Positions 89-15,397 of a stretch of DNA of 15,494 bases are shown here, piece by piece. Under the pieces are notes generated by a model. That model ran no database searches, was not told where the DNA came from, and saw only the letters and a list, made by a program, of their open reading frames with translations. How positions within the stretch are numbered: position 1 is the first letter of the stretch; every line of letters starts with the position of its first letter. This DNA comes from a virus (lineage: Duplodnaviria; Heunggongvirae; Uroviricota; Caudoviricetes): positions 1 through 15,494 of the IMG/VR virus record IMGVR_UViG_2568526635_000004. One strand, 5' to 3'. The position numbers and the translations under genes were made by a program.

Positions 89-364
89 GGGAAATTTGCT
101 GGCGGTTTTGCTTAACCGTTATCATTTTCCGGCTATCCGCCATGAAGCTGGTGGATGTTTTTTCTATGCAGATTTGCATAGTTTCAAATGGGGTTGGTCG
201 TTATGGGAATTCCCATATCGGCATCACGCCCACCAGCGTGAAGTATTTTTGTAATTTCGCGGGTGTAAAAATTTGACGAGGCGGGCGGTCCCATAAGCAA
301 TAGGTTGTAGGGATTTCGATCCCCCTCCTGAATGCAATTTTTCGTATATATATATACAAAACAG

Positions 365-517
365 TGCGGGTTATGCGGGTTAGCGGGTTATCTTCGCGTG
401 CTAAGTATTTTTTATTCTTTAATATCAATGCCTTAAAAAATAGCGTGTTTAAATATTATCCAAATCGTAACCCGCAAGTCATTCAAAATAACCCGCAAAC
501 ACCCCCCAAATAACCCG
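365..517. repeat. Iteron cluster: 3 tandem forward GCGGGTTA(T) copies (365-372, 374-381, 382-389), an AT-rich spacer, then 3 inverted copies TAACCCGC (467-474, 488-495, 510-517) at ~21-bp spacing; second origin-like or crr-like site
   Basis: Exact 8-mer matches counted directly; the same motif forms the array at 8647-8769 next to the replication gene; a degenerate copy GCGGGTGTA lies at 259-267. Confidence 0.6.
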
Positions 518-763
518 CAAACGCATCAGGAAAGTGGGTCCAGTGATGCCACCGAACGGCTGAATCGGGTAACGTTCTGTTGCCTGGTTGTTGTTTGCGG
601 GTCAGCAATACTGACGCGCAAAGTTAGTTGTATGTGGCTGTGCGTCCACCAGCTACGCCGGAATGGGGTATTCCGTTTCAACGGAACCGGTATGACGAAC
701 ATGATCGCACCTTCTCCCGAAAACGGTGCGACCTCCATAGAGGAAATGCCTATTCAGATCCCC

Positions 764-3255: not shown

Positions 3256-3595
3256 GCTCGTCCTCTTCCTCTGTTTCAGGTGGATTTCTGCGGCGGCTTA
3301 CCGGGTCAAAACCCAGCAAAGAAGCCATTTTGATCATTATTCTTTCTGCGTCAGCCTTTGCGCTCAGGGCGGGGTTTCTGCTCTCGCTGCCCTGACTGTT
3401 AACAATGCTGAACCCGCGCGTGGCAAGGTCTTCGACGGCTTTGCGGTATATGGAGTAGTTAACGCAATACAGCTCCAGATTGCTCCAGTCGGCGGGGGTA
3501 AGGTCTTCCCGTCCGGAAAGCTGGCGCGATTTTTCCTTCCACTGCCTGACCGCGATTTCATCCAGGTAAGCGGGGGCTTTTGGTGGTCTTGCCAT
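3239..3595 (-). CDS. terS: Phage terminase small subunit, P27-family-like
   Basis: N-terminus MARPPKAPAYLDE typical of P27-family small terminases; an in-frame ATG at 3736 with better Shine-Dalgarno would add 47 aa, so the true start is uncertain. Confidence 0.78.
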   Translation of the reverse strand: MARPPKAPAYLDEIAVRQWKEKSRQLSGREDLTPADWSNLELYCVNYSIYRKAVEDLATRGFSIVNSQGSESRNPALSAKADAERIMIKMASLLGFDPVSRRRNPPETEEEDELDRLA

Positions 3596-3883
3596 GTTCT
3601 TTTTTCGCCCAATTATTTTCAAAAAAATTCCCGTGCACAAAAATTTGAGGGGGCGGTCGGTGTCCGGCAGGGACGGTTTCGTCCTGAAAACCACCCCCAC
3701 CCCCTCTGACGGCCTCACCAGCGATTGCGAAAACATTCCATGACCTCGCGGTCACGGTCGGTTAATCGCTTCGCTGTGGTGCGTTTTGTGCGCCCTGTCC
3801 TGTTGGCTTTGTGCTCTGTCTCCTGTGTCTTCCATGTGTCACGCTGCCTTATCAGTCCACGTATCAGCCTGGTTTGCTCCTGT

Positions 3884-4324
3884 TCAGTCATCATCGCCAT
3901 ACATCCAGTCGTTACGGTGTGCCGCCCGTTCTTCCTGCTCGCGATACATGCCCGCTTTACGGTTTGCTTTCGTGGCTGGATCTTCCCGTGTCGTCTTACG
4001 GTTGTGGCACGTCTGGCACAATGCCTGGTGATTCCACTCAGGCCAGAAGAGAACATCACCGCCGCCATTGATGGGAATGATGTGATCCACCACAAGAGCT
4101 GGCGTATAAATCCCCTTAGCCAGACAACGCACGCATAACGGGTTTTTGCTCAGGTACAGGGCGCGGTATTTGTCCCACTGTCGGGAATACCCGCGCGCGC
4201 GGCGGTGTCCCCGTCTGGCATCCTCTGCACGCCATGCAGCCCGCCTGTGCTCTTCACACTTGCCGGACTTCACGCGCTTATTACAGCCAGGCTCAGTGCA
4301 TCGCCTTAATGGTTGCCACGGCAT
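3884..4324 (-). CDS. HNH endonuclease (phage packaging-associated)
   Basis: Cys-rich zinc-finger-like N-terminus (CTEPGCNKRVKSGKC), VVDHIIP and NHQALCQTCHNRKT motifs; ATGA overlap with the upstream connector gene. Confidence 0.9.
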   Translation of the reverse strand: MPWQPLRRCTEPGCNKRVKSGKCEEHRRAAWRAEDARRGHRRARGYSRQWDKYRALYLSKNPLCVRCLAKGIYTPALVVDHIIPINGGGDVLFWPEWNHQALCQTCHNRKTTREDPATKANRKAGMYREQEERAAHRNDWMYGDDD

Positions 4325-4626
4325 CAGTACACCCCTACGTCACGATAAACTGACCAGAGCGCAGAAATAGCCATAGGCAGTTCCGAGTGCTCCACTGGTG
4401 AAACCGCTTCCCGGTTCTCGTACAGGAAAGCGATGTACATCAGGCAACCAACACGCATTGCCGGGGTAAATTCCAGCCCGTCTTCAAAACGTTTCCCGAT
4501 ATGCTTCTGGCAGGCTTCCAGCGCCGCATCGGTATACATTTTCAGAAGTTCGCCTTCACCGGATAAATCATCATCAAGTCGAAGATGTGCCCTGACTTCA
4601 TCAGGTGTAATTCTGGCTTCACTCAT
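4324..4626 (-). CDS. gp6-like head-tail connector / adaptor protein
   Basis: Start MSEARITPDEVRAHLRLDDD resembles gp6-like head-tail connector proteins; ATG at 4626 has AGGGAG Shine-Dalgarno; the six-frame ORF extends to 4713 but that part overlaps the portal gene. Confidence 0.78.
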   Translation of the reverse strand: MSEARITPDEVRAHLRLDDDLSGEGELLKMYTDAALEACQKHIGKRFEDGLEFTPAMRVGCLMYIAFLYENREAVSPVEHSELPMAISALWSVYRDVGVY

Positions 4627-6449: not shown

Positions 6450-7619
6450 CTAGCCAGCTTTCATTTCCAGAATTTTGATGGCGTTTGAATCCACCACACC
6501 ACCGCCCAGATATTTATCCGTGTGGACCTTGTAGAATCCGGGTTCAGTAATGTTGTCCGGTCGGGTGCGAATCCCTGTTACATGATCAACGATGAAATAA
6601 CCACGACTGAAATCGCCAACCGCTAGCGGTGCTTTTCCTGCGCCGATGTCCGGCATGGACTCCAGGCAGTAAACAGGACGACCAAGCAACATATCCGGCG
6701 CACCTTCTTTAAGGCTGTCGCGCCAGATATAATCGCCGTTCTCATTTTTCAGCTTCTGTAGTGTCCCTGCCGTGCCCGAGTTCATCACCCAGACGGCATT
6801 TTTGCGGTATTTCGCTTTCAGCTTGTAGAGAATGTCGATCAGTTCGTCCGCTGTAATGGCGGTTCCACTTGCCGCTACCATTTTTTCAATGGTGCCAAAA
6901 GCGCGGGTTTTGTCACTGGTCGCCGCACGGGTGTAAGCCATGAAGCCTTTCGGCTTGCCGTTACCGTCGCCATTAACAAAATCATCCTCTTCGGTGCTGA
7001 CGAACGTGTCGGCAATTTCGGAGGATAACCAGCCCAGAATATCCACCTCTGAAAAATCCAGGATTTCCTGCGTGGTTTTCGGGTAGGCGTAGATCGGATT
7101 CAGCTTGATGGTTACGCGTTCAATTTTCGGGGTGTTGGTTTCACTGCGTGCGCTGCCTTCTGTGCCTCGTCCTACAGTTGCGCCGCCAGTGGAAACCAGT
7201 TTCTGAAACTCATTTGATTTTGCGGTCTTCACGGTCGCGATCACGCGCATAACACTGTCATCCTGTAGCTGGCGCATGACTTCGCGATCGAGCTCAGGAA
7301 TTACGGTATATCCGCCATCCCTGCCGCTGTCAGTGCTGGTGGACAGTGATCGCACATCTCCGGTTACGATGTAGTTACGCAATTCATCAGATGATAATTT
7401 CTGGATGCCCGTTCCTGGCTTGCTGCGTTCTTCATCAGCCACAGACTCGAGGCGGGAAATTTCTGTGTCGAGAGAATCGGCTTTTGCACGCAGTTCATCA
7501 AACTGTTTGCCCTCGTCATCGTTCAGGCTGCGGTTTTCACTGTCGGCTTTTTCCAGCAGGGATCGCATCTGGTTTTTCAGGGCGGTTTTTTGCTGGCGGA
7601 GTTCGATTAATTTCTTCAT
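6450..7619 (-). CDS. HK97-fold major capsid protein with N-terminal coiled-coil scaffold (delta-like) domain
   Basis: 389-aa ORF; charged coiled-coil-like N-terminal ~100 aa followed by MCP-like body and a C-terminus typical of HK97 capsid proteins. Confidence 0.92.
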   Translation of the reverse strand: MKKLIELRQQKTALKNQMRSLLEKADSENRSLNDDEGKQFDELRAKADSLDTEISRLESVADEERSKPGTGIQKLSSDELRNYIVTGDVRSLSTSTDSGRDGGYTVIPELDREVMRQLQDDSVMRVIATVKTAKSNEFQKLVSTGGATVGRGTEGSARSETNTPKIERVTIKLNPIYAYPKTTQEILDFSEVDILGWLSSEIADTFVSTEEDDFVNGDGNGKPKGFMAYTRAATSDKTRAFGTIEKMVAASGTAITADELIDILYKLKAKYRKNAVWVMNSGTAGTLQKLKNENGDYIWRDSLKEGAPDMLLGRPVYCLESMPDIGAGKAPLAVGDFSRGYFIVDHVTGIRTRPDNITEPGFYKVHTDKYLGGGVVDSNAIKILEMKAG

Positions 7620-8159: not shown

Positions 8160-8582
8160 CTAAAAGGGTATGTTATCCCCGTATGGATCATCATTCCCCG
8201 CCTGTTGCTTAGCCCTATTTAGAGCGTCAGTAGCCTGGCCCTGCTGGCCTTTTTTGCCACCAGGTCGCGCCGTTCTGGCACTGATTACGCTGTCTGCGAT
8301 AACCTGCCAGCCCTGCCGCGTTTCCCCGTTCTGGCCTGTCCACTGGCTTACCTGCATGTTACCCGCCACGCTCACCAGCTCGCCTTTGTGGTGTTTTGCC
8401 AGTGCGTCGGCCTGTCTGCCAAACGCCAGAACGGATAACCACATCGTCGCCTGTCCGTCATCTGCCTGATTGCACGGCAGGGGGACAGCCATGCTTGCCA
8501 TAGCCATTTGTGTGCCCTTGCTGGTGGTCTTTAACTGCGGGTCAGCCACCAGCCGCCCGTAAGCTGCTATCTGTGCTGTCAT
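8160..8582 (-). CDS. ssb: Single-stranded DNA-binding protein-like (SSB-like) with acidic C-terminal tail
   Basis: 140-aa ORF with OB-fold-like layout, Gly/Gln-rich linker and a C-terminal DDPYGDNIPF resembling the canonical SSB DDDIPF tail; GGAGAA Shine-Dalgarno. Confidence 0.7.
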   Translation of the reverse strand: MTAQIAAYGRLVADPQLKTTSKGTQMAMASMAVPLPCNQADDGQATMWLSVLAFGRQADALAKHHKGELVSVAGNMQVSQWTGQNGETRQGWQVIADSVISARTARPGGKKGQQGQATDALNRAKQQAGNDDPYGDNIPF

Positions 8583-8646: not shown

Positions 8647-8769
8647 GCGGGTTATAATCGCACTTTTGCGGGTTATAACTGCCGTTTTGCGGGTTACGTG
8701 CGGGTTATTGATTTCCTTTTTATTCATACAGTTAATGCACTTACACACAGGATAACCCGCATAACCCGC
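8647..8769. repeat. Origin-like iteron array: 4 forward GCGGGTTA copies (8647, 8668, 8689, 8700; 21/21/11-bp spacing), AT-rich spacer, 2 tandem inverted copies (8753-8760, 8762-8769)
   Basis: Exact repeats counted in the sequence; located immediately downstream of the primase/helicase gene, with the AT-rich segment 8709-8750 between the arms. Confidence 0.7.
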
Positions 8770-8793: not shown

Positions 8794-10917
8794 TTAATCT
8801 TCTGCCTCAGGCTGGAACATCATCACGTAAAAAACATGCTGCTTACCCCCAATTTTGCCGAGCGCCTTTTTCTTGTAACGGCGATCGTTACCCGCTTCCA
8901 GCATTCCGGCAGCACTCAACGCGCGGGCAAAGTGGGATGGGTTAAATCCCTGTGCGATCTCCCCCTCAAACACATGAGGAAACGTGTAAAAACGGAACTC
9001 ATCATCTTCATTTCTGATACTCCCCTTTCTGTATCCGGCAAGGTCTTTAATCGGTAAATCACGCTCGTCGGTGTTGGGCCACGGAAGGTATCTGCTGAAT
9101 CCGAACGACGCTAAAAAAGCCTCTGCCTGTTCAACCATCTGTTTAAACTCCCTGTTACCCGTGCCGAACTCCTTCACCCAGGCATTAAAATTATGCTGAA
9201 TGGCATCGCGGCATTCCTGCTCATTCCAGCCAGTAACATGACCGGAAAGCACAAGCGCGGCCTCCAGTATGGCGAAACGCTCACCCACGCGGTGGACCTG
9301 CTCGCCGTAGCTCTCCGGTATCAGGTTGCGCCACCGTTCACGGCATGCCCTTACCATGTCCTTTGCCTCCTGCTGGTGGTCTGCCAGCCATTTAACCCAC
9401 TCACGCCCCGCCGCCCCGTGATTTTCTGTCCAGGCATCTTTTAACGCGTCTGCGTGCGCCTTTCCGGTGCTGTATTCGTGAAATTGTGTGGCTTTTTCCA
9501 TCGGCACGTTAAGCAGGCGGACAAGCTGCCCCGCCTTGACTTTTATCCCCTCCGTTTTGAGGAATGTTTCAACGTCCATTTCTCCGGTACTGATTGCCAC
9601 CGTTCGCCAGTGTTTTATCTCCCTGTTGCCGCCGTCCTTCGCCCCCTGTAATTTCCCGGAACCGTTAAACAGCGTATAAGCAGACGTTGACACCTCCCGC
9701 GCGTTTCCGGCCTGGCCTATTTCATCCAGGGGTAACAGCCCGTCGTTGTGTGCCTCTGCCTCGTTGGCGATACCTAACGCTGTGCCGTACCAGGTCAGCC
9801 GCTGCGCGTCCGGCTCTCCCCATAAACTTGATGCGATGTTCTGCGTTGTGGTCTTACCTGCCGATGACTGTTCGAAAAGATGTACCCCGAAGCCGTCAGC
9901 ACCCACCAGCCCGATTAATGGTGCGGATAGCGATACCGCCACACCCAGCATCATGGACGGATTACCACCAGCCAGTCGCGCCACACTGTCGCGCCAGCCC
10001 TCCGCCGTTCCTGCCACGGAATAACCATTAACGGCAGCCGTTTTTCCGGTAAACAGGACTGGCTTTTCGCAATCACCAATGACCGAACCGTCCGGCATGA
10101 TGTACGCGCCAAAATGCCAGCCCGTTGTTGTGCTTAACTGCCATTCCTCATGGTTTCCGCTTAACTGCATCCAGTCAGCCAGGATAGCCCTGTATTTACC
10201 GTTGGTTGTCACGTTCAGTCCGTGGTCTTTCAGCAGCCGCCAGCCGTCACGGTCGCCAATGCCACCGCACGGAACCGCCATCGTGATGACTTCATGGTTT
10301 GCTGGCTTTTTCCAGCGCATCACGCGGTAATGCTCTTTGCCGATTGTCCCCGTTCCCAGTAGCTCAAGCGGGGAGCATAACCACGTTTCAGGCCGGATAA
10401 TTTCGCCTGACTGCTTATCCACTTTTGGCGTTACCCAGAAAACACCATCGGCGCGGCTTTCAACGCGGGGCTTTAATTCATCATCACCCGGGCTTTCTGT
10501 GATTTTTTTCTTTAAGGGCAACACCAGACTTTCCCCGCGCTCGTATTCGTCTTTGAGGCGAGGCAACTGGTCGGATAAATCCGCCGGGCTGGTGTCAGTT
10601 ATCCCCGCGTATTCGTATACGGTCTTCACGCCAGCCACAGCCAGCAACGTGACGATCTGTGTGAGGCTACGTTCAGTGATGTGCCCTGCGCGGTAAATAC
10701 GCACACACTGACGGCTATCATCAATAATTTGATAACCGGTAATATCTTTCAGGTGTTCATCTGACAGAACGACAGGCGGCACATTGTCGGCGGCAATATG
10801 CTTACCTGCCCATTCCTGCCACTCTTTCGCATGGCTCCACGCATCACTACCCGCAAAGATGATAACCTCCGTCATTTTGTCGGCTGGCTGGTGCTTTAAG
10901 TTTGGTGCGCGCTTCAT
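8794..10917 (-). CDS. Replication initiation protein, primase/helicase type (P4 alpha-like, Walker A GKT)
   Basis: 707-aa ORF with a central P-loop (FEQSSAGKTTT) and large flanking domains; ATG at 10917 with GGGGAAAGG Shine-Dalgarno, ATGA overlap with the upstream ORF; the exact family was not verified. Confidence 0.8.
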   Translation of the reverse strand: MKRAPNLKHQPADKMTEVIIFAGSDAWSHAKEWQEWAGKHIAADNVPPVVLSDEHLKDITGYQIIDDSRQCVRIYRAGHITERSLTQIVTLLAVAGVKTVYEYAGITDTSPADLSDQLPRLKDEYERGESLVLPLKKKITESPGDDELKPRVESRADGVFWVTPKVDKQSGEIIRPETWLCSPLELLGTGTIGKEHYRVMRWKKPANHEVITMAVPCGGIGDRDGWRLLKDHGLNVTTNGKYRAILADWMQLSGNHEEWQLSTTTGWHFGAYIMPDGSVIGDCEKPVLFTGKTAAVNGYSVAGTAEGWRDSVARLAGGNPSMMLGVAVSLSAPLIGLVGADGFGVHLFEQSSAGKTTTQNIASSLWGEPDAQRLTWYGTALGIANEAEAHNDGLLPLDEIGQAGNAREVSTSAYTLFNGSGKLQGAKDGGNREIKHWRTVAISTGEMDVETFLKTEGIKVKAGQLVRLLNVPMEKATQFHEYSTGKAHADALKDAWTENHGAAGREWVKWLADHQQEAKDMVRACRERWRNLIPESYGEQVHRVGERFAILEAALVLSGHVTGWNEQECRDAIQHNFNAWVKEFGTGNREFKQMVEQAEAFLASFGFSRYLPWPNTDERDLPIKDLAGYRKGSIRNEDDEFRFYTFPHVFEGEIAQGFNPSHFARALSAAGMLEAGNDRRYKKKALGKIGGKQHVFYVMMFQPEAED

Positions 10918-11228
10918 TTTGCCTTTCCCCGTTCACGAATAATTTCACGTACTGCCTTAATGCGTTCCATTCCTGTAACGCGCATGATTCTGTCGATGTC
11001 GCTTAATTCTGCTGGTGGTGCTTTGCTTACCAGGGTGAACTCCCTGTCAAAGCGCATATGTGACGACACGCAGGGATGCGCATAACCTTCGCGGATATAG
11101 GTCACACGAAAATCATCGACGGTTTTAATCGTTATCGTGCTGCCGTATTTATCCCGGAAAATATCACCGGGGCGGATTTCAGGCCGAGCGTGACCGCTGG
11201 CAGTAAAGCCAGAATTTTTCTTTTTCAT
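10914..11228 (-). CDS. Hypothetical protein (104 aa) coupled to the primase gene
   Basis: ORF with ATG start; its stop overlaps the primase start codon; no recognisable motif. Confidence 0.6.
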   Translation of the reverse strand: MKKKNSGFTASGHARPEIRPGDIFRDKYGSTITIKTVDDFRVTYIREGYAHPCVSSHMRFDREFTLVSKAPPAELSDIDRIMRVTGMERIKAVREIIRERGKAK

Positions 11229-11234
11229 GTTTTT

Positions 11235-11453
11235 TTACTCCAGAGGCAGCTTTTTAGCGGCGAGCTCAATATCAGATGTCAGAGAAACCTGTGTATTTGC
11301 CAGGTCTAACAACAAAGAAATAAGAATTTCTTCTCTGCTATCGGATTTATCGGTGCTAAGGCTGTTCATCCACATATTGACGACTTCCCTGATTTTTTTC
11401 GCAGAGTGCAGGGCTTCAAATGCCAGGTCTTCAATATCATGTTTATTTCGCAT
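11235..11453 (-). CDS. Hypothetical small protein (~72 aa), relatively AT-rich
   Basis: ATG at 11453 preceded by a GGGGG Shine-Dalgarno; the ORF track offers a longer version to 11483; overlaps the stop of the upstream small ORF. Confidence 0.5.
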   Translation of the reverse strand: MRNKHDIEDLAFEALHSAKKIREVVNMWMNSLSTDKSDSREEILISLLLDLANTQVSLTSDIELAAKKLPLE

Positions 11454-11688
11454 AATCGCCCCCGCCATTTTCACAATCAGCAATCAGGATGGCTTTAGCC
11501 TCATTCAGCGCCATATCAGCGGTAAGCTGTGCGTAAGCCAGCGAATGCGGGATTATCGCCCCTGTATATTCCGTCTCTCTGGTAATGTGTTTTTCTGCGG
11601 TTGCTACCGTGCATGAAATATCAATCAGCGCGTGCATCAGCGTTTTGATGGCTTCGGCGGCTGCGTCCGGACGGGTGTTATTGCACAT
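11443..11688 (-). CDS. Hypothetical small protein (~81 aa)
   Basis: ATG at 11688 with GGGGG Shine-Dalgarno, overlapping the stop of the Ash/Icd-like ORF; the six-frame ORF extends further upstream but that part overlaps the neighbouring gene. Confidence 0.5.
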   Translation of the reverse strand: MCNNTRPDAAAEAIKTLMHALIDISCTVATAEKHITRETEYTGAIIPHSLAYAQLTADMALNEAKAILIADCENGGGDYAK

Positions 11689-12217
11689 GGCGCACCCCCT
11701 GACGAATACGGGCGGCGAATACAGCGACACAACCTGACGGGCAATGGTTACGCGCTTCGCGTTCCGTCCAGGCGGTGACGTGGATGATTTGGGACTCTGA
11801 CGCGCCAAAGATGATAAAGCGCCAGATAAAGGCAGTTTGGGAATGTACAAGGGTAGGGATAGTAGCCATGTTGGCAGCCTCTTCGTTAGGTTTAATAAAC
11901 CCACCGCAGGAAACGCCAATTTCGCTGGCGGTGGACTGTACAGGGTTGGCGTAACCGGTTAACGAAGAACCCGGCGCGGATTGCTCCGCCCCCATACAGC
12001 CCACCATTGATAAGGTGTGACTATCCGGCACAAAAAAACACGCAGGGCGCGTGTTGTGCGCTTCGTTAAATACCAGGACGCCAATCCCGGCACCAGATTT
12101 TGCTGGTGCGGGTAAATCATAGCCCTGGCTGGCAGTGGCGATCAACAGGTTTTTTACATCGGGTTTATTCAGGTTGTGCGAGTCCCGCCCTTGCGGGTGT
12201 GTGGTATGATTTAGCAT
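11678..12217 (-). CDS. Ash-family-like protein with C-terminal Icd-like (cell-division-inhibitor-like) segment
   Basis: Segments AKSGAGIGV, FFVPDSH, SMVGCMGAEQ, ANPVQSTASEIGVSCGG recall Ash-family proteins of P4-like elements; the C-terminal FIWRF...TEREAR...FAARI recalls Icd-like peptides (an internal ATG at MATIPTL could yield a ~62-aa product); start at 12217 has a GAGGT Shine-Dalgarno. Assignment is from memory of these families, not from a search. Confidence 0.5.
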   Translation of the reverse strand: MLNHTTHPQGRDSHNLNKPDVKNLLIATASQGYDLPAPAKSGAGIGVLVFNEAHNTRPACFFVPDSHTLSMVGCMGAEQSAPGSSLTGYANPVQSTASEIGVSCGGFIKPNEEAANMATIPTLVHSQTAFIWRFIIFGASESQIIHVTAWTEREARNHCPSGCVAVFAARIRQGVRHVQ

Positions 12218-12314
12218 AGCTACCTCGATACGCTTTCTATCGTTGGTGGTTAGAAGCCCTGCGAGTGGTAACGACACTTGCGGGGCTTTGCATTTATGCA
12301 CCTTGATAACCTCA

Positions 12315-12350
12315 AGGTGTGGCCCACTATATGCTTTAGGTGTGGTCCAC
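12315..12350. promoter_or_regulatory. Two operator-like 13-bp direct repeats AGGTGTGG(C/T)CCAC, each containing the dyad GTGG-N-CCAC, in the divergent control region
   Basis: Repeats at 12315-12327 and 12337-12350; immediately upstream of a TATACT -10-like hexamer (12381-12386) and the plus-strand small gene. Confidence 0.5.
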
Positions 12351-12416
12351 GTCAAGGGTTTTATTTGTGCTTTTTCTGTGTATACTGTCCCCCACCAATC
12401 CAACAGAGGAATAGAA

Positions 12417-12596
12417 ATGGCAACGGGTACAACAAACGCAAAATCACAAGCTCTAAAGGCTCGTGTACCACACGAAATAGTAAACGCCATGGAATCAGTG
12501 AAAGAATCAGGCGAAAGCACATCACAATTCATCATTGCGTCAATGCAAGGCGAGATCAAACGCCGCCAGCGCAGGAAGGCCAAAGAGCAGGAATAG
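12417..12596 (+). CDS. Small ribbon-helix-helix-like (Arc/MetJ-type) DNA-binding protein, candidate repressor
   Basis: 59-aa ORF (MATGTTNAKSQALKARVPHEIVNAMESV...) with GAGGAA Shine-Dalgarno 7 nt upstream; N-terminal basic beta-strand-like segment followed by helices; the only plus-strand gene, divergent from the replication operon. Confidence 0.6.
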   Translation: MATGTTNAKSQALKARVPHEIVNAMESVKESGESTSQFIIASMQGEIKRRQRRKAKEQE

Positions 12597-12729
12597 CCCA
12601 CCAGCAAGCCAGCACATTCACCATAATGACCCTCGGTTAAACCTAGAGTCATTGGTGCAAACCTGACAGATTGCCCACCAGCCAGCAAATCGCTATGATG
12701 TTCGGGCTTATGTTTAGTGTTTTCCCATT

Positions 12730-12758
12730 GGCGACCGCCCCCGGTCGCCTTTGTTTTA
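12730..12758 (+). terminator. Rho-independent terminator on the plus strand
   Basis: Perfect 8-bp stem GGCGACCG/CGGTCGCC with CCCC loop followed by TTTGTTTTA; ~135 nt downstream of the plus-strand small gene. Confidence 0.7.
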
Positions 12759-12776
12759 TGTGCCATATACTCCCCT

Positions 12777-13001
12777 TTACGCTGCCTTGCCTGAATTAAT
12801 GCGATCCCGGCTTTTAACCCATTCCATAACCTCGGACAGCAGCCAACCTACAGAACGACCGCCCAGATTAAGACGTGACGGAAAGCATCCTTTTTTCTCC
12901 AGTTCGTAGCGTGTAGTGCGGCACACTCCTGTTAACTTACGGCATTCATCCTCACGGATTACGCGATCTGATAGTGATTGCGATTGTTTGAGTTGGTTCA
13001 T
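12777..13001 (-). CDS. alpA: AlpA-family transcriptional regulator (excisionase-like helix-turn-helix)
   Basis: SDRVIREDECRKLTGVCRTTRYELEKKGCFPSRLNLGGRSVGWLLSEVMEWV matches the AlpA/phage regulatory protein pattern; ATG at 13001 has a GAGGG Shine-Dalgarno (the ORF track extends to 13037). Confidence 0.85.
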   Translation of the reverse strand: MNQLKQSQSLSDRVIREDECRKLTGVCRTTRYELEKKGCFPSRLNLGGRSVGWLLSEVMEWVKSRDRINSGKAA

Positions 13002-13079
13002 ATAAAAACGCCCTCGTTCGTTATCGTTCGAGAGCATTTTTTATGAGAGAAAATAGGTAAGCAATAAACAAAAAAATAA

Positions 13080-14075
13080 TTATTTTTCTTTATTTATTTT
13101 GTATTCGCTAAGTAATTTATAAATTTTAGGTCTAATTTTTTCTAAAAATGGTATAACTGTTTGTTCAAGCCCGAAACCATCACGCTCACCATTGGGATAA
13201 ATCATGGATGCAAGAACACGCTTTGGGACTCTTCTTTTTGTTCCAAATGTATAAAACTTAGCCAACATCAATAAATCCATAAGCGGTATAATTTTATATT
13301 TTATTATTCTCTCTCTCAAATATCCCCATGCCCGTTTGGGTTCAGGCTCTTCTAAATTGAGTTCTTTTCTCCATATCGGTAATAATTTTTTTAAATCAGA
13401 TAATATCTCATCATCTGTTTTTGTAATATCAAGTGACAAGTGCATTGCATAAGAAAAGCCTTCACTATTAGACTTCATCAATTCAGGCGCAACTGCACTT
13501 AAACTCTCATTTGCCAAAGTAAATAGAAGTTCATCATCATACTCAGATAAATAATCGACATCTTCAGAGCTCAACAATAATGTGCGCTCAGTTCCTGCAC
13601 CCGATGATGGTTTTTTCCAAACATAATTTTCAAGCATTATTCTTCGCAAAGGGACTACGGTTCGAGTTGATGATAACATATGAGGAAAAAAACCTTTATA
13701 CAGTTCTTTTCTTATGTTTTTTTCATAAAACGAATAGTCCGCACCAATATCATCGCCAATAACTGAAGATGCAAATATCTTTCTAAACCGACCAGAAACA
13801 AAAGCAATCTCAGTTTCTATTGATGGAATTTTTGAATTAATAATATCTTTTGTCTCATTCTCATCTTCTGGCAAACTCCTTACATCGATAAAATTCTCAT
13901 ACAAATAAGCCATAAAGTGTTCTTCATCTTCTACAACAAACCCCTTTATAAATCTGTTGTAATCCTCTCTACGCATTAACTGAGTAATCAATTCAAAATC
14001 ACTCATATCGGTAAAAACTTCATACTTCCCCAAATTAAAGCCCAATGCTTCTGCAAAATTTTTAAAAGAAATCAT
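13080..14075 (-). CDS. Hypothetical 331-aa cargo protein, strongly AT-rich, unknown function
   Basis: Uninterrupted ORF whose ATG overlaps the integrase stop (ATGA at 14072-14075); nucleotide composition visibly far more AT-rich than the rest of the element; no recognisable catalytic motif by eye. Confidence 0.8.
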   Translation of the reverse strand: MISFKNFAEALGFNLGKYEVFTDMSDFELITQLMRREDYNRFIKGFVVEDEEHFMAYLYENFIDVRSLPEDENETKDIINSKIPSIETEIAFVSGRFRKIFASSVIGDDIGADYSFYEKNIRKELYKGFFPHMLSSTRTVVPLRRIMLENYVWKKPSSGAGTERTLLLSSEDVDYLSEYDDELLFTLANESLSAVAPELMKSNSEGFSYAMHLSLDITKTDDEILSDLKKLLPIWRKELNLEEPEPKRAWGYLRERIIKYKIIPLMDLLMLAKFYTFGTKRRVPKRVLASMIYPNGERDGFGLEQTVIPFLEKIRPKIYKLLSEYKINKEK

Positions 14076-15292
14076 TTGCTAACCTTCAAAATAACAACAT
14101 TTTCATTATTACCAACTAACACATCGAGACGTTCAACCCATAGATTCAGAGCGTCCCGCTTCGCCTGTAAATAGCGTGAATGGTTATAGGTTTTTTGCTG
14201 ACCAGGCATCTGATGCGCTGTGATGTGCTCCACGATATGCGGATCGACACCTAAATCGTTCAGCATCGTTGTAAACGTGTGGCGAAAGTCATGCAGCGTC
14301 CAGTGTTCCTGGTTAAGCCGCTTATGCGCATTTCGCCCATATTGCGCTACCGTGGTATCTTTTTTCAGTTCTCCGAGTAACAACCCTGTATGCCGGTTCT
14401 GCTCCACCAGCTTCTGAATGAACGGCAAAATGCCATCGGGTATTGGCCTGAATATCGTTACCTTCGTTTTGCTGTGCTCTTTTGGCACTGTCCACAACAT
14501 TTCTTTCAGATCCCATTCTTTGATCTCTGAAAGTCTGACCTCTGCCGTTCTGCACCCGAACACAATCAGCAAGCGCATTAACGCGCTGTAGTAAGGCGCG
14601 AACACATCACCATCAATAGCGCGTAAAATTTCCTTTAATTCGCTGTTGCTGTGCACCCTCTCGCGAATTTCTGCTCTCTTACCCACATCGCTGACGATCA
14701 AATCGTCCAGGGCATTACTGAACGCGTAGCGCCTCCTGCGGCAGAACTTTAGCGCCTGTTTGCAGGTTTGCATGACGTGCCCTGCTGCTACTGGTGCTTT
14801 TTTTCGTACACGGTCAAAACATGCGATCCACTGCCTTGTATCGCATTTATCAAGAGGAATTGCCCCTATATGGCAAATGATGTGCTTATCCATACGTTGC
14901 ACCAGCTTTATGTAGTCTTTGCGGTTATCCTTCGCGTATTCCTCCAGCCAGTAGTTAATCGCCTCCTTTACCGTAACGGGTTTTAGTGATTCCTGTACTG
15001 TGGCGCACAACTCATAACGGGGGTTTTTACCCTCAGCCAGCCATGCCCGGCACTGTGTGCGTTTTTCCCTTGCGGCTTTCAGCGACAATTCCGGATAAGC
15101 CCCCAACTTTAGCCGCTCAGCGGCAACCTCACGGCCTCCCGTTCGATACCGGAAATACCAGGTTAATTTGCCGCCCTTTGAGTGTTTAATCTCCAGCCCG
15201 CCCCCGTCGGAGTAAAAACGCTCTTTTTCTGCCTGGACAGCCGCTAATTTTTTTAACGTCGAATCGCTCAGTTTGTTTAGTGCTTTTCCCAC
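14072..15292 (-). CDS. int: Tyrosine recombinase / integrase, P4 type (N-terminal arm-binding domain plus catalytic domain)
   Basis: 406-aa ORF; N-terminus LSDSTLKKL...GGLEIKHSKGGKLTWYFRYR typical of P4-like integrase arm-binding domains; catalytic HDFRHTF and C-terminal Tyr region; GTG start at 15292 with AAGAGGA Shine-Dalgarno; adjacent to the right direct repeat. Confidence 0.93.
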   Translation of the reverse strand: MGKALNKLSDSTLKKLAAVQAEKERFYSDGGGLEIKHSKGGKLTWYFRYRTGGREVAAERLKLGAYPELSLKAAREKRTQCRAWLAEGKNPRYELCATVQESLKPVTVKEAINYWLEEYAKDNRKDYIKLVQRMDKHIICHIGAIPLDKCDTRQWIACFDRVRKKAPVAAGHVMQTCKQALKFCRRRRYAFSNALDDLIVSDVGKRAEIRERVHSNSELKEILRAIDGDVFAPYYSALMRLLIVFGCRTAEVRLSEIKEWDLKEMLWTVPKEHSKTKVTIFRPIPDGILPFIQKLVEQNRHTGLLLGELKKDTTVAQYGRNAHKRLNQEHWTLHDFRHTFTTMLNDLGVDPHIVEHITAHQMPGQQKTYNHSRYLQAKRDALNLWVERLDVLVGNNENVVILKVSK

Positions 15293-15319: not shown

Positions 15320-15397
15320 CCTCAAAAAACTGACCACACAACTGACCACACATTTTGTTGAAGCTCTACGAACAACGACGAACAACAACAAACAAGA
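15320..15397. repeat. Right copy of the ~76-bp imperfect direct repeat (putative attR), immediately upstream of int
   Basis: See left copy at 13-88. Confidence 0.7.

Follow-up and report, generated by a model that had tools for sequence, protein, structure and literature searches.

A cluster of six short repeats (iterons) at the left end of an Escherichia coli satellite island, hereafter module A, is probably the displaced second half of a two-module replication origin, a cis-acting site for loading of the island's own Rep protein; we put the probability of this reading at about 0.55. It is drawn from comparative sequence analysis of one 15,494-bp stretch of DNA (hereafter the window) and its relatives, in which we document the anatomy of module A, its match by co-variation to the resident Rep, its sequence constraint and its distribution. 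From these we infer that Rep binds and melts module A and that replication requires it.

The island and its initiator

The window holds a single integrated element between 70-nt direct repeats. Its minus-strand genes encode an integrase, a DUF6387 cargo protein, an Ash-family protein, a DUF4222 protein, a 707-aa DUF927 protein (Rep) and SSB. An HK97-type head and packaging set (i.e. major capsid protein, prohead protease, portal and large terminase) is also encoded, and connector, HNH and P27-family small terminase genes are annotated as well in relatives. This gene set is that of a capsid-forming PICI (cf-PICI) (bioRxiv 10.1101/2022.09.08.507074), and the window is an E. coli-type cf-PICI. 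Related DNA is present in more than 2,000 complete E. coli genomes, with a best match of 96.5% identity over 83% coverage. The features that delimit the element and its initiator are:

17-86: left attachment-site direct repeat (attL side), 70 nt, 97% identity to 15326-15395
8794-10917, minus strand: gene of the Rep initiator (DUF927), 707 aa, Pfam DUF927 at 5.7e-46
14072-15292, minus strand: integrase gene
15326-15395: right attachment-site direct repeat, adjoining the integrase gene

Rep matches PDB entry 8tch, a 'pathogenicity island protein' (4.7e-15), and the SCCmec Cch helicase 5dgk, and by these matches is classed as an MCM-like self-loading helicase-initiator. In SaPIs, Reps of this kind form hexamers that act as self-loading 3'-5' helicases, and their C-terminal winged-helix domain reads iterons; the iterons flank an AT-rich region immediately 3' of rep, and at least two iterons per side, in opposite directions, are the hallmark of such origins (PMC9371898). 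Gram-negative PICI origins have been given the same description, and a rep-ori fragment of EcCICFT073 drives plasmid replication (PMC6092414). Given this placement and this hallmark, the iteron cluster directly 3' of rep (hereafter module B) is the expected origin of the island. The C-terminal ∼110 aa of Rep vary with iteron class; this domain has no NCBIfam match, and its single-sequence AlphaFold2 model has a mean pLDDT of 39.

Two iteron clusters in the window

The 8-mer GCGGGTTA has 12 exact matches in the 15,494 bp, in two clusters of six, against a mean of 0.52 and a maximum of 4 in dinucleotide-preserving shuffles, none of which (0/200) reached 12. The two clusters are composed as follows:

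366-518: module A (left cluster), six exact GCGGGTTA copies
366-373, 375-382 and 383-390, plus strand: three tandem iterons of module A, in steps of 9 and 8 bp
391-467: AT-rich spacer of module A, putative DNA unwinding element, 77 bp, 72.7% A+T (window 49.9%)
468-475, 489-496 and 511-518, minus strand: three spaced iterons of module A, in steps of 21 and 22 bp
8647-8769: module B (rep-proximal origin), directly 3' of rep
8647, 8668, 8689 and 8700 (8647-8707), plus strand: four forward iterons of module B
8708-8752: AT-rich spacer of module B, 45 bp, 68.9% A+T
8753 and 8762 (8753-8769), minus strand: two tandem inverted iterons of module B, 25 bp 3' of the rep stop codon

An earlier, sequence-only reading of this DNA had described the left cluster as three forward tandem and three inverted, phased 8-mers around an AT-rich spacer, far from the initiator gene and near the left attachment repeat. 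The exact-match scan bears out this arrangement, and the cluster lies 8.3 kb from the rep stop codon and ∼280 bp from the repeat at 17-86. The interval then assigned to it (259-517) does contain the iterons, but these fill 366-518 only; 259-365 is occupied by other features, i.e. a phiP27-type cos-like site (about 248-328) and a TA-repeat leader (324-365). The motif had also been expected to be confined to these two loci, which agrees with the chromosomal flanks of related loci, where only isolated single copies of the 8-mer occur.

Modules A and B are separated by 8.1 kb, a stretch that holds ssb and all of the capsid/terminase operon (ssb to terL, about 8 kb). Measured between module centres, the distance is 8,266 bp, and 7,043 bp if the excised circle is followed in the other direction. 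A one-mismatch iteron, GCGGGTCA, occurs at 597-604 (79 bp past module A) and at 8537-8544 (103 bp before module B, within the ssb gene); both copies sit in a similar 22-nt context (TGGT..T..GCGGGTCAGC, 77% identical), and the pairing could be due to chance.

Anatomy and sequence constraint of module A

The reverse complement of module A is collinear with module B: both consist of spaced iterons, an AT-rich spacer and tandem iterons in 8-9 bp steps. The spaced iterons of both modules also share a 12-mer extended consensus (TTTGCGGGTTAY) and a phasing of 21-22 bp, a step that in module A corresponds to about two helical turns. Because of this collinearity, module A reads as a complete, inverted origin-type module and not as a loose set of sites. 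With three forward and three reverse iterons around an AT-rich spacer it shows the PICI/SaPI origin hallmark; the position immediately 3' of rep is held by module B and not by module A.

The spacer of module A contains the least stable 60-mer duplex of the window (401-460) outside the AT-rich cargo region at 13.0-14.1 kb; its instability (z=3.4, 99.5th percentile) compares with z=2.07 for the spacer of module B. An exact IHF core consensus (TATCAATGCCTTA) lies in the module A spacer at 423-435, and the IHF pattern has five matches in the window versus 0.7 expected. The spacer also contains a DnaA box with one mismatch, which on inspection by eye is not conserved in the close relative L003.

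Among 35 unique module A sequences of the GCGGGTTA class, 6 of 48 iteron columns are variable, compared with 79 of 121 non-iteron columns (Fisher 2e-10), which indicates that the iteron columns are under purifying selection. Of 5,426 complete E. coli genomes, 138 contain module A DNA of this class. Twelve matches to it were sampled from RefSeq E. coli: 11 carry no annotated feature and one lies under a hypothetical protein.

The left end of the island

From the outside inwards, the left end consists of the att repeat, a phage-type cos, the TA leader and module A. The two elements between att and the iterons are:

248-328: phiP27-type cos-like site, adjoining module A, 84.5% identity over 81 nt to the 'cos-site' region of phage phiP27 (E=3e-13)
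324-365, plus strand: conserved leader CCTCCTGAATGCAATTTTTCG-(TA)n-CAAAAC, flanking the tandem iterons on their outer side

The 10-nt cos core of phiP27 (GGGGCGGGCG) aligns with GAGGCGGGCG at 278-287, and the 248-328 region also matches the genome termini of Burkholderia phages. A lambda-type cos was rejected: both 190-330 and 3590-3700 gave chance-level local alignment scores against the lambda cos junction. A second, diverged cos-like copy lies at 3625-3661 upstream of terS and is common to the EcCIEDL933-like island; two such sequences recall the cos1 and cos2 reported for EcCICFT073.

The leader is near-palindromic and easily melted, and the equivalent position at module B is taken by the end of rep. 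The leader has 47 matches in IMG/VR, and iterons follow every one of them; a TA-run is also found beside the A modules of Serratia and Tenebrionibacter. A sigma-70 scan found no promoter site at the leader and a regional total of sites at chance level. Rfam gave no RNA match within 1-1600. The leader is identical in islands of another iteron class, and homology between the classes stops exactly at the leader/iteron junction. Replacement of the iterons in place was considered and discarded on alignment, as everything to the right of the leader differs between iteron classes.

Beyond module A, an array of short variable palindromes (e.g. CCCCAATGGGGG, CCACCAATGGTGG and GGTGATTTCCACC) occupies about 650-1310, within the mostly non-coding region between terL and module A, with similar DNA in classic PICIs. 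Three of these palindromes are followed by an exact IHF consensus (AATCAACGGGTTA at 832 and 1240, TATCAACCAGTTA at 1294).

Co-variation of iterons with Rep

Both clusters are present in the close relatives with the same Rep (L001-L004). The islands of E. coli 1002W03 (L005), E. coli F637 (L006) and E. albertii (L008) encode a Rep that is near-identical up to residue ∼600 and then has a different C-terminal ∼110 aa, and they carry GGGACAA-type iterons at both module B and the distal module A. Their end module has the same cos and leader as the window, but GTCCCAC tandem and GGGACAAG spaced iterons. In three Serratia islands (L013-L015) the origin shares TGAACCAAC with a distal module 2.3-6.2 kb off, with a TATATATA leader outermost. 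Distal A and B iterons thus agree in three classes (i.e. GCGGGTTA, GGGACAA and TGAACCAAC).

Across about 100 loci, clusters of the Rep C-terminal region at 72% identity correspond one to one to iteron classes, i.e. GCGGGTTA (49 loci), GAACCA (21), GGGAC (12), TGGGTTA (3), ACCGACAA (3) and ACGGGT (2). This co-variation supports the view that the iterons of module A are those recognized by the island's own Rep. The same pattern upholds the earlier suggestion that the left cluster is a site for the island's initiator, in so far as its iterons change together with the origin iterons and the C-terminal class of Rep.

Further repeat clusters were noted in some relatives. In the Serratia islands L013 (18181-18332) and L014 (16801-16938), a cluster of five to six GGTACGCA repeats in both orientations lies ∼130 bp past the distal A module, followed in L014 by a cluster of GTGGAAAC repeats. 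The Yersinia pekkanenii island (L012) has three composite TGAACCAA iteron clusters within 6 kb (7137-7336, 11719-11918 and 12900-13190) and an unusually long Rep match (10001-12855), which suggests a duplication or insertion in its replication region.

Position of module A among relatives

We compared 107 loci with a relative of Rep, comprising 80 from a Rep-based IMG/VR scan that was blind to module A and loci collected earlier, some of which had been found through module A or its flank. Two arrangements occur next to rep: either module B stands alone, or module A abuts it to form a quasi-palindromic composite. The EcCIEDL933-like island L007 has the composite, as do further contigs, among them ones from E. 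coli, Serratia and Tenebrionibacter. Where 8 kb or more of sequence follow rep, a cognate distal A accompanies 25 of the B-only origins and was not detected with 6, while it accompanies 2 of the abutting origins and was not detected with 26. Abutting and distal A modules are therefore near-exclusive (Fisher 7.8e-9, a descriptive value because the loci are related and no correction for phylogeny was applied).

The distal A modules fall into 17 distinct configurations, 2.3-11.1 kb from rep, all with one relative orientation and with the leader outermost. Some islands (L004 and L006) have two copies. Three more B-bearing E. coli islands, picked from a spread listing of B matches before module A was searched for, all contained it (3/3): at 8.2 kb in E. 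coli 042, at 11.1 kb in a tRNA-Gly island and abutting in the third. In the tRNA-Gly island (L068, 2610-9957), which has the same Rep and iterons, three large hypothetical genes of 2.1-2.8 kb each stand between B and A in place of the capsid genes, and module A is consequently 11.1 kb from rep.

An absolute rule that every island has a cognate A does not hold, as six B-only loci (L010, L082, L089, L092, L123 and L129) show none in the 8-10 kb available. Some of these may be limited by range, since module A can be 11.1 kb off.

The sequence-only reading had attached meaning to the fact that the two clusters bracket the head operon. We abandon this point: the modules abut in many relatives, including the reference-type cf-PICI L007, and the same split is seen in classic PICIs without capsid genes (e.g. 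L003 and L005), whose modules are 2.3-6.8 kb apart. Bracketing of the head operon is thus incidental and an effect of cargo position.

A proposed two-module origin and its alternatives

In the reading that we favour, the origin of this family would consist of two modules: module B, 3' of rep, with tandem iterons, an AT-rich spacer and spaced iterons, and its mirror image, module A, with spaced iterons, an AT-rich spacer, tandem iterons and the TA leader. Module A would either abut B or stand at the far end by cos. After induction, Rep would bind both modules, and A would act in cis, either by giving Rep another place to load and melt the DNA or by enhancing initiation at B, in which case Rep-Rep contacts would loop out the DNA between them. 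The replicon would then need, or strongly benefit from, one cognate A and one cognate B, and the arrangements seen in related elements, nearly all of which retain one cognate A in abutting or distal position, suggest that both modules are needed. The published rep-ori picture is a counterpoint, as module B alone already fits the minimal PICI origin layout, and the matching iterons of A and B could stem partly from repeated duplication of the origin rather than from selection.

A stronger version, which we regard as possible though doubtful, is that enterobacterial PICIs with a DUF927 Rep have an obligately two-part origin, in which two mirror-image half-origins would each load one MCM-like Rep hexamer in a fixed direction and, up to 11 kb apart and with entire gene modules (e.g. 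the capsid operon) between them, would cooperate by Rep-mediated looping. If this were true, recombinant islands that have an orphan A and a different Rep could rely in trans on the Rep of another PICI in the same cell for their replication, i.e. one satellite would depend on another.

Three other roles (i.e. handcuffing, a functionless duplicate and a cos-linked function) are possible but fit the anatomy and distribution of module A less well than a two-module origin does. The first is negative copy-number control, in which A would titrate Rep or handcuff with B or with sister copies, as in P1 incA, F, RK2 or the control sites of V. cholerae chrII. Copy-control arrays such as P1 incA, F incC and those of RK2 are direct repeats that lack an unwinding element and act negatively. 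Like them, module A adds to the minimal origin a further group of origin iterons that would be able to bind the initiator; this role could operate at variable distance and predicts the co-variation with Rep specificity, as does any Rep-binding role. Module A differs from these arrays in having opposed iteron sets around a duplex of low stability and in forming half of a composite origin in relatives. Module A is not an array of direct iteron repeats without an unwinding element: it has the full origin layout, with opposed iterons on either side of a duplex that is the least stable in the window once the AT-rich cargo region is set aside, and in many relatives it abuts B in a quasi-palindromic composite. 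A satellite that amplifies fast after induction also has, we infer, little obvious need of restraint. Handcuffing-type control, one of the roles proposed in the sequence-only reading, is made less likely by the strong unwinding element and the opposed iteron sets, and we consider it an unlikely role.

The second is that module A is a functionless by-product, a duplicated origin segment carried along with the cos/att end during recombination between PICIs. In its favour are four recombinant elements in which the left-end or distal A is non-cognate to the resident origin. In L046 the Rep is a different one, and the repeats at the origin are CCTCTACC-type. The cf-PICIs L048 and L054 have a P4-alpha-like Rep and nine origin repeats of TGTTCACC, the P4 type 1 ori/crr repeat, yet their left module has six GCGGGTTA copies. 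In the Serratia island L009 a GGGATAA composite origin is combined with a distal module of TGAACCAA iterons. Composite origins lie beside rep in L009, L048 and L054. The Rep of L048 (9104-10918) and L054 is chimeric: its first ∼140 aa are as in the window Rep, and the rest, a helicase and C-terminal part, is 49% identical to residues 313-776 of P4 alpha; the TGTTCACC array of L048 (8868-9085) lies beside this gene. Replication modules have evidently been swapped between P4-like and PICI satellites, to judge from these sequences. A left-end A can therefore persist without a cognate Rep, and the end of inter-class homology exactly at the leader implies that the cos/leader end segment and the replication module recombine independently. 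This modular break, the double A copies of L004 and L006 and the B-only loci with no A in range all agree with a by-product. Against it stand the far stronger conservation of iteron columns (6/48 variable versus 79/121), the recurrence of near-exclusive abutting and distal positions across three iteron classes and more than one genus, the invariant orientation in 17 distal configurations and the six exact iterons in module A of the window. Passive carriage is improbable as the explanation of module A.

A packaging-linked role, in which Rep and/or IHF at A would organize the adjacent cos (e.g. by bending, end marking or coupling of late replication to terminase loading) without initiation, is suggested by the cos-like sequence that always lies beside a distal A at the island end, by the same flank in classic PICIs and by the IHF core consensus in the spacer, but it is very unlikely, as about half of the islands have A abutting B by rep and far from cos, the cos-distal end of the EcCIEDL933-like island lacks an A module, and the second island-type cos-like copy (3625-3661, upstream of terS) has no iterons beside it.

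Comparison with known origins

Apart from its position, module A agrees in structure with published PICI and SaPI origins. It has their layout with the island's own iterons, and Rep is homologous to the SaPI-type protein and to Cch. In contrast to the published case of one origin directly 3' of rep (PMC6092414, PMC9371898), the window has a second full module 8 kb off, inverted, with its own TA-repeat leader and beside cos. Our literature search, covering open-access PMC and bioRxiv, found no description of a two-module or split PICI origin and, beyond the papers cited, nothing usable on the iteron motif.

The sequence-only reading had likened the two clusters to the ori and crr sites of phage P4. 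In the P4 record, the same 8-bp type 1 repeats lie at 4314-4585 and 9310-9413, in sites 4.7 kb apart; crr (4291-4590) is directly 3' of the alpha gene and next to attP, and ori spans 9086-9809. Each crr unit, like the modules of the island, contains tandem repeats (with a 9-bp step) and opposed repeats. crr is reportedly required in cis, and alpha is said to bind both ori and crr; crr is also reported to work in either orientation. The island resembles P4 in that (i) six plus six exact GCGGGTTA copies form two separated clusters, as the P4 type 1 repeats do, (ii) one cluster is directly 3' of the initiator gene and the other kilobases away and (iii) both elements are E. coli phage satellites. 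The differences are that (i) crr is made up of two 120-bp direct repeats, whereas A, which has a long AT-rich spacer, occurs as one module and is not duplicated in tandem, (ii) the initiator-proximal site of P4 is crr and the distal one ori, whereas here the proximal site is the accepted ori and (iii) the orientation of module A is invariant. What survives of the P4 analogy is the occurrence of the same repeats at two sites, with a distribution that fits a cis element at variable distance. Homology does not, because Rep is an MCM-like DUF927 helicase that has no significant similarity to P4 alpha in BLASTP. The best reading of this comparison is that module A may resemble P4 ori/crr in function without homology.

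Plasmid R6K offers a second analogy. Its gamma, alpha and beta origins are iteron sites kilobases apart that are required in cis and act at a distance: contacts between initiator molecules loop the DNA between an iteron 'enhancer' and the distant origins. The R6K initiator, pi, is of the Rep_3 type and recruits host DnaB, and the distant origins have only one or half an iteron. Modules A and B would be comparable in being iteron sites kilobases apart on one small replicon, but here the initiator is itself a helicase and module A has six iterons.

PICIs and cf-PICIs are major vehicles of horizontal transfer in Enterobacterales, and their replication is now described as relying on one rep-proximal origin. 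A conserved, Rep-matched second module, abutting or up to 11 kb off, would redefine the minimal replicon and would explain a conserved and nearly always unannotated block at the island end. Such an origin would be a natural system for studying how self-loading MCM-like helicases are positioned for bidirectional replication, and would parallel P4 ori/crr in function with proteins that are unrelated. It could also be of practical use for PICI-based delivery vectors and for predicting the replication compatibility of co-resident satellites.

Other features of the island

The DUF6387 gene (13080-14075, minus strand), between the integrase gene and the regulatory region, has ∼32% G+C in an island of 50% G+C. 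Other genes take its place in relatives, and it is probably a recently acquired accessory cargo gene.

Rfam matches to C4 antisense RNA (75 bits) and isrK (80 bits) lie at 11924-12109 on the minus strand, within or next to the Ash-family ORF, and point to an RNA-based immunity region like that of P4 and P1. In relatives, the corresponding position has annotated Icd-like and YlcI/YnfO genes.

Two close cf-PICI relatives, in E. coli OkiPb01701 (L002) and E. coli 042 (L067), are inserted within the large-terminase gene of a prophage, a configuration described as a 'helper-embedded PICI' (PMC10111431).
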